UHGV virus genome: UHGV-0127092
Source: a virus
Direction: 5' to 3' (one strand)
DNA: 42,338 nt
The position numbers and the translations under genes were made by a program. This document shows, one piece after another, positions 31,089 through 31,172 of the stretch. The notes below the pieces were generated by a model. That model made no database searches. It saw only the letters and a list, made by a program, of their open reading frames with translations, and was not told the DNA's origin. Within the stretch, counting starts at the first letter, position 1; every line of letters starts with the position of its first letter.

Positions 31089-31098
31089 AGTGTTTTCC

Positions 31099-31170
31099 GT
31101 TAACTATATTAACTACGAGTTAAGGTTATATCTTAACTGACAGTTATGTCAACTCTAATTGATAATTAAC
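31099..31170. promoter_or_regulatory. OR operator/promoter region: overlapping TTAAC-type palindromes with candidate PR and PRM
   Basis: Palindromes TTAACTACGAGTTAA (about 31109-31123), TTAAGG...CTTAA (31120-31136), TAACTGACAGTTA (31134-31146). PR minus strand TTGACA (31147-31152) -16- TATAAC (31125-31130). PRM plus strand CTGACA (31137-31142) -18- GATAAT (31161-31166), ending about 6 nt before the cI ATG. Confidence 0.5.
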
Positions 31171-31172
31171 GA

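Follow-up and report, generated by a model that had tools for sequence, protein, structure and literature searches.

The virus genome UHGV-0127092 (42,338 bp; its full length is called the window below) contains a lambdoid early region in reverse orientation, and this report concerns the immunity region within it, where a cI repressor gene and a cro-like gene diverge from each other. The cI product matched Peptidase_S24 (E 5e-19) and phrog_4, and the match of its N-terminal domain to HTH_3 was sub-threshold (E 0.004). Its self-cleavage residues C130-G131, S173 (in GDSM), and K210 align with the conserved S24 columns, and the predicted Cys-Gly cleavage site is presumably the same as in phi80. 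The divergent open reading frame (ORF) encodes a small Cro-type helix-turn-helix (HTH) protein, which matched phrog_35 (transcriptional repressor) and PF15943 (E 5e-7; 29.9 bits against a cut-off of 30 bits). The ORFs bore out the 84-bp cro-cI intergenic region at 31089-31172 that had been given in a preliminary description of this DNA; its G+C content is 28.6%. The gene order is lambdoid, with cro, cII, and O/P-type genes on one side and cI, cargo genes, and a second early promoter (pL, left promoter) on the other. A DnaC-like ORF, judged by eye from its Walker-type sequence, follows the O-type gene. One operator motif was found both in the cI/cro intergenic region and at pL. The preliminary description had regarded the intergenic region as the operator set of a cI/cro immunity region, and this view was supported by the S24-type cI, the YdaS/Cro-type Cro, the cII- and O-like genes, and the position of the sites on the predicted promoters.

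The operator unit is a 15-mer, TTAAC-N5-GTTAA, symmetric about its central base pair, with the half-site (T/A)TAAC(C/T). The core TAAC-N5-GTTA occurs in five exact copies in the window (at 31110, 31134, 31167, 33971, and 33995), against 0.29 expected, and no shuffle out of 100 that preserved dinucleotides reached five. Of the five copies, three are located between cro and cI (right operator, OR) and two on the pL promoter 2.8 kb downstream (left operator, OL), and none was found elsewhere in the window. The 15-mers do not overlap one another, and their centre-to-centre spacings are 24 bp (OR1-OR2), 33 bp (OR2-OR3), and 24 bp (OL2-OL1). With a weight matrix built from the sites of relatives only, the window's own five being excluded, the five sites scored 18.9-21.4 bits; the next best position in the window scored 11.3 bits, and the shuffle maxima averaged 11.7 bits. 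Furthermore, the seven TTAAC/GTTAA pentamers in 31099-31180 are clustered more densely than anywhere else in the window (Poisson P ~5e-8, calculated with the density of the window as a whole). At least three overlapping palindromes built on these pentamers had been described previously; the motifs themselves were confirmed, and the overlap was not, the conserved units being three non-overlapping 15-mers. The end of the region at 31172 likewise had to be corrected, since OR3 extends 8 bp beyond it into codons 1-3 of cI. The coordinates are collected in Table 1, together with those of the cro-directed promoter (PR, right promoter) and the cI-directed promoter (PRM, promoter for repressor maintenance).

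Table 1 Features of the immunity region and of the pL-like promoter. Scores in bits are from the weight matrix.
Feature	Position	Strand	Sequence or product	Remarks
O-type replication gene, after cII	29644-30498			PF04492
cII-like gene, downstream of cro	30581..30802	-		PF05269 Phage_CII, E 9e-13
cro-like lytic repressor gene	30843..31088	-	81 aa, YdaS/Cro-type HTH	ORF list and family matches
OR1	31109..31123		TTAACTACGAGTTAA	Perfect 5+5+5 palindrome; centre 31116, the predicted PR +1; 18.9 bits
PR -10, candidate	31123..31128	-	TAACCT	Inferred; 18-bp spacer
PR -10, alternative candidate	31130-31125	-	TATAAC	16-bp spacer; position homologous to 933W CATAAT
OR2	31133..31147		TTAACTGACAGTTAT	In the PR spacer, abutting the PR -35; centre contains the PRM -35-like CTGACA; 19.5 bits
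PRM -35-like hexamer, inside OR2 centre	31137..31142	+	CTGACA	Promoter scan: CTGACA-18-GATAAT, 10/12 matches
PR -35	31147..31152	-	TTGACA (consensus)	Read from the sequence; identical in POCJ13
PRM -10	31161..31166	+	GATAAT	Ends 6 nt before the cI ATG; predicted +1 at 31173
OR3	31166..31180		TTAACGAATGGTTAA	Dyad centre 31173, the A of the cI ATG; right half forms cI codons 1-3; 19.7 bits
cI repressor gene	31173..31940	+	255 aa, N-terminal HTH and C-terminal S24 self-cleaving domain	
OL2	33970..33984		TTAACCAACGGTTAT	Overlaps the pL -35 by 1 bp; 20.1 bits
pL-like promoter	33984..34012	+	TTGACT-17-AATAAT	Predicted +1 near 34019; promoter scan, 10/12 matches
OL1	33994..34008		ATAACCATTAGTTAA	Fills the pL spacer, overlapping the -10 by 2 bp; 21.4 bits

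Some candidates were rejected. The 19-bp palindrome GTTAAG-N7-CTTAAC (31119-31137) arises where the inner halves of OR1 and OR2 meet, and it is not kept in relatives of the POCJ13 type (see below). GTTAAC at 31099-31104, considered as a fourth OR site, is a lone half-site without a partner and reads TTAAT in POCJ13; it is an HpaI site, situated 9 bp away from the left half of OR1 within the predicted cro leader, and most close relatives retain its TTAAC. The TTAAC cluster of second-highest density (37541-37640) falls within a 968-aa ORF, contains no palindromic 15-mer, and was attributed to chance.

Relatives of the region were collected in several ways. BLAST gave three tiers: two E. coli chromosomes at 100% identity, seven more at 92%, and the Shiga toxin 1 (Stx1)-converting phages POCJ13, 75/02 Stx, and phiSTEC1589-Stx1c at 72%. 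From cro to the N-terminal part of cI, E. coli 88COLEC is 100% identical to the window. A scan for an exact 17-mer brought in IMG/VR contigs, a genome of Enterobacter sichuanensis (L043), and an Enterobacteriaceae metagenome-assembled genome (L053); the latter two were the only real ones among 33 exact matches in genome contigs, the other 31 being chance matches in unrelated phyla. A protein-pattern scan of the genome contigs with the cI N-terminal domain gave 600 candidate stretches, none of which was confirmed. Finally, a profile-based scan of IMG/VR, combined with four annotated phages, gave a family set of 66 OR regions, all distinct, in which the N-terminal domain of cI is 31-100% identical.

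In 41 related loci (395 kb), the motif occurred at constant offsets of -27, -3, and +30 and again as two copies separated by exactly 24 bp; one further match was stray. Between the window and POCJ13, which was found independently by BLAST, the half-sites were identical at 29/30 positions and the promoter hexamers at 10/10, against 22/37 for the other positions of 31089-31180. AC/GT was invariant in 35 distinct sites (70 half-sites) of the relatives, and positions 6-8 were variable. Similarly, a comparison of 24 distinct OL variants showed invariant half-sites, hexamers TTGAC(T/C) and AATAAT that were invariant or nearly so, and variable operator centres; more divergent members with TTAAC half-sites also carry OL pairs 24 bp apart. 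Short palindromes are common in AT-rich DNA, and the spacer is AT-rich, so the sites might be thought to be chance features of it. This explanation was refuted by the excess over expectation and shuffles, by the weight-matrix scores, by the fixed offsets, and by the conservation of the half-sites while centres and flanks drift; its probability is negligible.

Across the 66 OR regions, the architecture was constant: the OR1-OR2 spacing was 23-24 bp and the OR2-OR3 spacing 32-33 bp in all of them, and in all of them the cI ATG lay on the OR3 dyad, at positions 8-10 of the 15-mer, as it does in the annotated OR3 of phi24B/933W. Three half-site specificities were found, and they track the recognition helix of cI. 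Operators with TTAAC go with the helix x-x-P-[GA]-[IV]-W-K-W and the cI N-terminus MVK, those with TCAAC with x-x-Q-A-[IV]-S-K-W and MVD, and those with [CT]G[TA]AC with x-x-K-x-V-S-K-W and MVQ. The N-terminus of cI differs by class; therefore, its third codon spells the right half-site of the operator. The TCAAC class is a large sister class of repressors in IMG/VR (L119-L159), with TCAAC-N5-GTTGA operators in the same architecture. Its cI begins with MVD, GTTGA being both codons 2-3 and the right half of OR3, and its PRM region keeps TG at -15/-14 (e.g. TGaGAGTAT), resembling an extended -10 promoter.

The tracking of the helix also bears on which protein binds the sites. Both Cro and cI carry HTH motifs, and the sites could be bound mainly or only by Cro, or by another factor, with cI recognising something else. 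However, the half-site class follows the cI helix across the 66 regions, sites at pL are expected for cI, and purified 933W cI binds the homologous operators of 933W (PMC3317979), so that we regard binding by Cro or another factor instead of cI as highly improbable. The helix S-N-V-A-I-H-K-W of Cro resembles that of cI, S-E-P-G-I-W-K-W (shared S-x-x-x-I-x-K-W), and Cro is expected to use the same sites as cI.

The two best sigma-70 matches in 30700-34500 were CTGACA-18-GATAAT (31137-31166), directed towards cI, and TTGACT-17-AATAAT at pL. The GATAAT had previously been placed about 6 nt before the cI ATG, and the distance was found to be exactly 6 nt. This hexamer was invariant in 13/13 distinct OR variants of close relatives. 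In the family set, A(-11)/T(-7) stood in register with a +1 at the A of the ATG in 61 of the 66 distinct members, and 3 more had it one nt upstream. The 25 nt upstream of the cI ATG contain no GG dinucleotide and no Shine-Dalgarno (SD) sequence. In contrast, cro keeps GGA/GAGG 6-9 nt before its ATG in all variants, which in the window is a GGA 7 nt upstream, a weak SD. An in-frame TAA at 31167-31169 stands two codons upstream of the cI ATG, and therefore no upstream start of cI is possible; the alignment of its N-terminus MVKK...EF with MVQN...EF of 933W also supports the ATG at 31173. The first 60 nt of the cI mRNA folded more weakly than 195 of 200 shuffles (z +1.8), the 5' end being unstructured and A-rich. 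The preliminary description had predicted a leaderless or near-leaderless transcript from PRM. Given the invariant -10, the register in the family, the lack of GG upstream, the TAA, and the unstructured 5' end, a leaderless cI transcript from PRM, with its predicted start at the AUG, is well supported.

We also considered that GATAAT might be non-functional and that cI might be transcribed from a promoter further upstream, within or beyond cro, and translated internally without an SD sequence. A possible promoter resembling that for repressor establishment (PRE) is present at 30780-30812 on the plus strand, with TTGC-N6-TTAA and a GATAAT 13 nt later, and overlaps the cII start codon (30802, minus strand). 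We take its geometry to be that of lambda PRE, with TTAA rather than TTGC as the second repeat, and PRE-like transcripts must, presumably as in lambda, also allow cI translation. However, the -10 is invariant in close relatives, the A(-11)/T(-7) hexamer is in register in 64/66 members of three specificity classes, and the 5' end of cI is unstructured and A-rich. In addition, the centring of OR3 on the ATG makes regulatory sense only if polymerase starts there. An exclusively upstream origin of the cI mRNA is accordingly quite unlikely. A long-leader establishment transcript of the PRE type would not contradict a leaderless PRM transcript, and the long leader that the preliminary description took as refuting evidence is an unsafe criterion.

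Leaderless cI-type messages have precedents. The lambda cI mRNA starts at its AUG without a ribosome-binding site (quoted in PMC3342100, PMC8630535). In the PaaR2/YdaS switch of the cryptic prophage CP-933P of E. coli O157:H7, a cI-like regulator faces a YdaS-family Cro analogue across 97 bp; the transcript start was mapped to the start codon by 5' RACE, and translation of the leaderless message was confirmed as well (PMC8630535). PaaR2, which regulates a toxin-antitoxin operon, has a reported mass of ~15 kDa, much smaller than the 255-aa cI, and the two are likened here by description only.

On the cro strand, the consensus -35 of PR claimed in the preliminary description was present (31152-31147), and a TTGnnn hexamer was found at this position also in 933W, SI8, D14L, and the TCAAC class. 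One base is shared by the PR -35 and the OR2 15-mer, and the PR spacer is filled by OR2. As the putative -10, TAACCT was preferred over TATAAC: its position keeps T1, A2, and T6 (TAnnnT) in every TTAAC-class variant (read by eye), whereas the position of TATAAC reads GTTAAC or ATTAAT in POCJ13-type and other TTAAC-class relatives. With either hexamer, the PR +1 would fall within OR1, and with the 18-bp spacer it would coincide with the OR1 dyad centre. PR and PRM are interdigitated, each -35 lying in the spacer of the other and the predicted starts being ~57 bp apart, and the two probably cannot be occupied by polymerase simultaneously. A study of the OR of phage 434 by Xu and Koudelka in 2000 (cited in PMC4848623), judged by its title, reported promoter competition, with mutually exclusive use of PR and PRM, in closely packed divergent promoters. 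The operators of 434 are 14 bp long and of different sequence. The 434 repressor served as the template for modelling the 933W repressor-DNA complex (PMC3317979).

Among characterised systems, phage 933W, and not lambda, comes closest in sequence and layout. The cI and Cro of 933W/phi24B are homologous to those of the window, with 33% identity over the N-terminal domain of cI (BLASTP E 4e-14) and 32% identity in Cro. A sequence search of PDB gave no match for cI and one non-significant match for Cro (E 0.44). The 933W sites were defined experimentally as five natural sites of 15 bp, symmetric about the central pair and conserved at positions 2-5 (PMC3317979). Similarly, the window has five 15-bp sites, three at OR and two at OL, with the same symmetry and with AC at positions 4-5; the annotated 15-bp sites of phi24B read CGTACTTTCAGTACG, TGAACTGAAAGTTTT, and CGTACTCATGGTTCA. 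The spacings OR1-OR2 and OL1-OL2 are 24 bp in both, and OR2-OR3 is 32 bp in phi24B against 33 bp here. Furthermore, in phi24B/933W as in the window, the cI ATG occupies positions 8-10 of OR3 and the PR -35 overlaps OR2 by 1 bp, and in 933W a -10 hexamer likewise ends 6-7 nt before the cI ATG.

Other features differ from those of 933W. The half-site is TTAAC here and CG(T/A)AC in 933W, with T instead of G at position 2, and the recognition helix is S-E-P-G-I-W-K-W here and S-S-K-G-V-S-K-W in 933W, preceded in the window cI by a 5-residue insertion. In 933W cI, S41/K42 contact positions 2-3 and K46 contacts positions 4-5 (AC) (PMC3317979). The equivalent of K46 is K51 here; it is invariant, and so is AC in every class. 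In place of S41/K42, the window cI has E46/P47, and its operators carry T instead of G at position 2. The best conserved PR -10 points to a spacer of 18 bp here, against 16 bp in 933W, and the C-terminal domain of cI is phi80-like here, unlike that of 933W. By architecture and descent, the predicted switch belongs to the 933W family, and not to the 933W immunity group.

The leaderless PRM transcript had first been likened to that of lambda. This reading of the transcript stood, and the better model for the switch was found to be 933W, since OR2 is centred at -33 rather than -42 of PRM. The lambda operators are 17 bp long, three of them at OL; its OR2 is centred near -42 of PRM, its OR3 overlaps the PRM -35/-10, and its PR and PRM starts are ~82 bp apart. 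Unlike lambda, the window has operators of 15 bp and two OL sites, with OR2 at -33, OR3 centred on +1, and the two starts ~57 instead of ~82 bp apart, and a comparison of the DNA-binding half of cI with lambda gave no detectable DNA similarity. The divergent cI/cro, the tripartite OR with the 24-bp OR1-OR2 spacing, the predicted repressor control of pL, and the S24 self-cleaving C-terminal domain are as in lambda. A strict lambda-style switch would have repressor at OR2, beside the PRM -35, activating PRM via sigma region 4 from about -42, with cooperative binding at OR1-OR2 and looping to an OL3. The three OR sites with the 24-bp OR1-OR2 spacing of lambda, the divergent cI/cro, and the leaderless geometry would fit such a switch, and PRM activation followed by repression is common to the lambdoid repressors studied, according to reviews (PMC5977221). 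However, the OR2 centre is 33 bp, not ~42 bp, from the only possible cI start, fixed by the stop two codons upstream. Because OR2 is centred at -33 and itself contains a -35-like hexamer, lambda-style contact from -42 is excluded by geometry. The 15-bp operators with a central base pair are like those of 933W, no third OL site is conserved, and cI and Cro are homologous to those of 933W. We therefore consider a strict lambda-style switch unlikely.

Taken together, these results indicate that the region very probably acts as the immunity switch between lysis and lysogeny in a lambdoid prophage and follows the 933W plan, with a leaderless cI mRNA. In the mechanism that we propose, cI dimers would recognise the five 15-bp operators. 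OR2 would fill the PR spacer and OR1 cover the PR -10/+1, and OL1 would fill the pL spacer and OL2 abut the pL -35; in these positions, occupancy would shut both lytic promoters. cI would be transcribed from PRM (CTGACA-18-GATAAT) with the A of the AUG at 31173 as +1, and because OR3 is centred on this +1, high repressor levels would switch PRM off and thus limit repressor synthesis. PRM might be activated by either of two routes, by relief of competition from the overlapping PR, or by an unusual co-occupancy of repressor and sigma region 4. SOS induction of the prophage is expected from the LexA-type self-cleavage module of cI. The analysis shows the sites, their statistics, how they are conserved and spaced, and the protein homology; binding, transcription starts, translation of a leaderless mRNA, and whether each site activates or represses are inferred from the sequence.

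Several points weigh against this interpretation. The PR -10 was not called by the consensus promoter scan and is weak and ambiguous (TAACCT or TATAAC). With the PRM -35 inside OR2, which is centred at -33, repressor bound to OR2 might hinder rather than stimulate PRM. The 17-mer query includes the right half of OR2 and the PR -35, and their conservation in that subset is circular; for these two elements, only the BLAST-found POCJ13 group and the protein-based set are independent. The right half of OR3 is also coding (M-V-K), so that its conservation is not independent evidence. In the literature, no experiment was found on the window element or on any TTAAC-class relative.

The family set further suggests what the centre of OR2 does. 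Only 6 variants of this centre were observed in the 66 regions (TGACT in 33, TGACA in 25, TGAAA in 5, and three singletons), against 32 variants of the OR1 centre, and (C)TGAC(A/T) is conserved across the three specificity classes. It follows that the OR2 centre is constrained as something else, most simply as the PRM -35. We tentatively raise the possibility, which is doubtful at present, that the 933W-like repressor family shares a switch geometry that differs in kind from that of lambda, with the PRM -35 within OR2 and the start points on the OR3 and OR1 dyads. In such a geometry, a (C)TGAC(A/T) -35 of PRM would lie in the non-contacted centre of OR2, centred at -32/-33, the cI +1/AUG would lie on the OR3 dyad, and the predicted PR +1 would lie on the OR1 dyad. 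If this is true, PRM would be stimulated by repressor and sigma region 4 sharing 15 bp from opposite faces, or by relief of PR competition. Moreover, cI codons 2-3 (MVK, MVD, MVQ) would be dictated by the operator half-site, such that the N-terminus of the repressor and its own binding site would co-evolve.

Among the neighbouring genes, cI itself is a domain chimera, because no sequenced phage closely matches its DNA-binding half at the DNA level, whereas its C-terminal half is 83% identical (DNA) to phi80 cI. E. coli relatives with an identical N-terminal half have a different C-terminal tail and a cI of 258 aa. Between cI and pL, at the place of rexAB in lambda, lie two genes (32120-33528, plus strand) with matches to PDC-M63, a candidate defence system in PADLOC; they matched its component A, a DUF6932 protein (E 2e-41), and its component B (E 6e-45). 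This cargo differs among relatives, e.g. a YafO-family toxin in L001, and for this reason the distance from OR to the OL pair ranges from 0.97 to 2.95 kb across the related loci. No Rfam family matched in or near the immunity region. Elsewhere in the window, Rfam matches to two families of Hfq-binding small RNAs were observed, namely isrJ at 23517-23590 (minus strand; 65.1 bits, above the gathering score) and isrB at 36409-36506 (minus strand; 36.5 bits against a 35-bit cut-off), the latter at the 5' end of, or just upstream of, the 968-aa ORF (36548-39454).

Around pL, the preliminary description had noted a recurrence of TAACC/GGTTA half-sites and had taken it as consistent with a shared repressor specificity. 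The recurrence held at 33970-34008, on TTGACT-17-AATAAT, and two sites 24 bp apart were found in every relative reaching pL, in agreement with that specificity; no operators are formed by the extra half-sites at 33929-33956. The candidate for a third OL site (33951-33965, ATAACCAATGGCAAA) was rejected, since its score of 10.0 bits is at chance level and it is not conserved, the sequence there being unrelated in L001. Divergent from pL is an 83-aa ORF (33664-33915, minus strand; phrog_3975, function unknown), with conservation in L001 and L003. The 55-bp stretch from this ORF to OL2 contains three extra TAACC half-sites and no operator-like palindromes, and the motif ACTAAATTAACC in 33920-33965 is kept in all non-POCJ13 relatives. 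Downstream, the pL leader of ~300 nt (within the feature at 34013-34526, plus strand) contains TGCTTTTTAACAA at 34077-34089, which we take to be a 12/13 match to the rrn/lambdoid boxA. It is followed by a 70-aa basic protein (34314-34526; phrog_5305, unknown) with the K/R-rich stretch PKKRQKPRKQ. The protein is a possible N-type antiterminator; in POCJ13, a gene annotated as N-like occupies the same position. No Rfam family matched in the region of the leader and the 70-aa protein.

In the searchable literature, no description was found of TTAAC-type operators or of the repressor sites of POCJ13/75-02. The putative TTAAC half-site is a new immunity specificity within a known, experimentally characterised kind, that of 933W. 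The 933W repressor binds non-cooperatively, with the affinity order OR1 > OR2 > OR3 (PMC5977221, PMC3317979), and, according to reviews, it both stimulates PRM and represses it via OR3 (PMC5977221, PMC4848623). It has been proposed for 933W that the repressor level and the 'hair-trigger' induction of toxin production are set by how strong OR2 and OR3 are relative to each other (PMC5977221). The TTAAC immunity type also occurs, in a form that is 71% identical, in the Stx1-converting phages POCJ13, 75/02 Stx, and phiSTEC1589-Stx1c, with an identical recognition helix in the POCJ13- and 75/02-type phages, and the question of OR2/OR3 strength raised for 933W applies to them. In the POCJ13-type variants (L096-L100, L002), the left half of OR2 reads TTAGC rather than TTAAC, and a second, overlapping pseudo-site, TAACT-ATT-AGCTG, lies 7 bp upstream. 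OR2 may be intrinsically weaker in these toxin phages, which would bear on the 'hair-trigger' idea.

The general understanding of phage switches is unchanged by these results, and a known design is extended. The analysis provides a testable map of operators and promoters for an immunity type present in prophages of E. coli, Enterobacter, and other enterobacteria. Furthermore, the half-sites TTAAC, TCAAC, and CG(T/A)AC form a natural specificity series that pairs with the recognition helices P-x-x-W, Q-A-x-S, and K-G-x-S, and this series could guide the engineering of orthogonal repressor/operator pairs.

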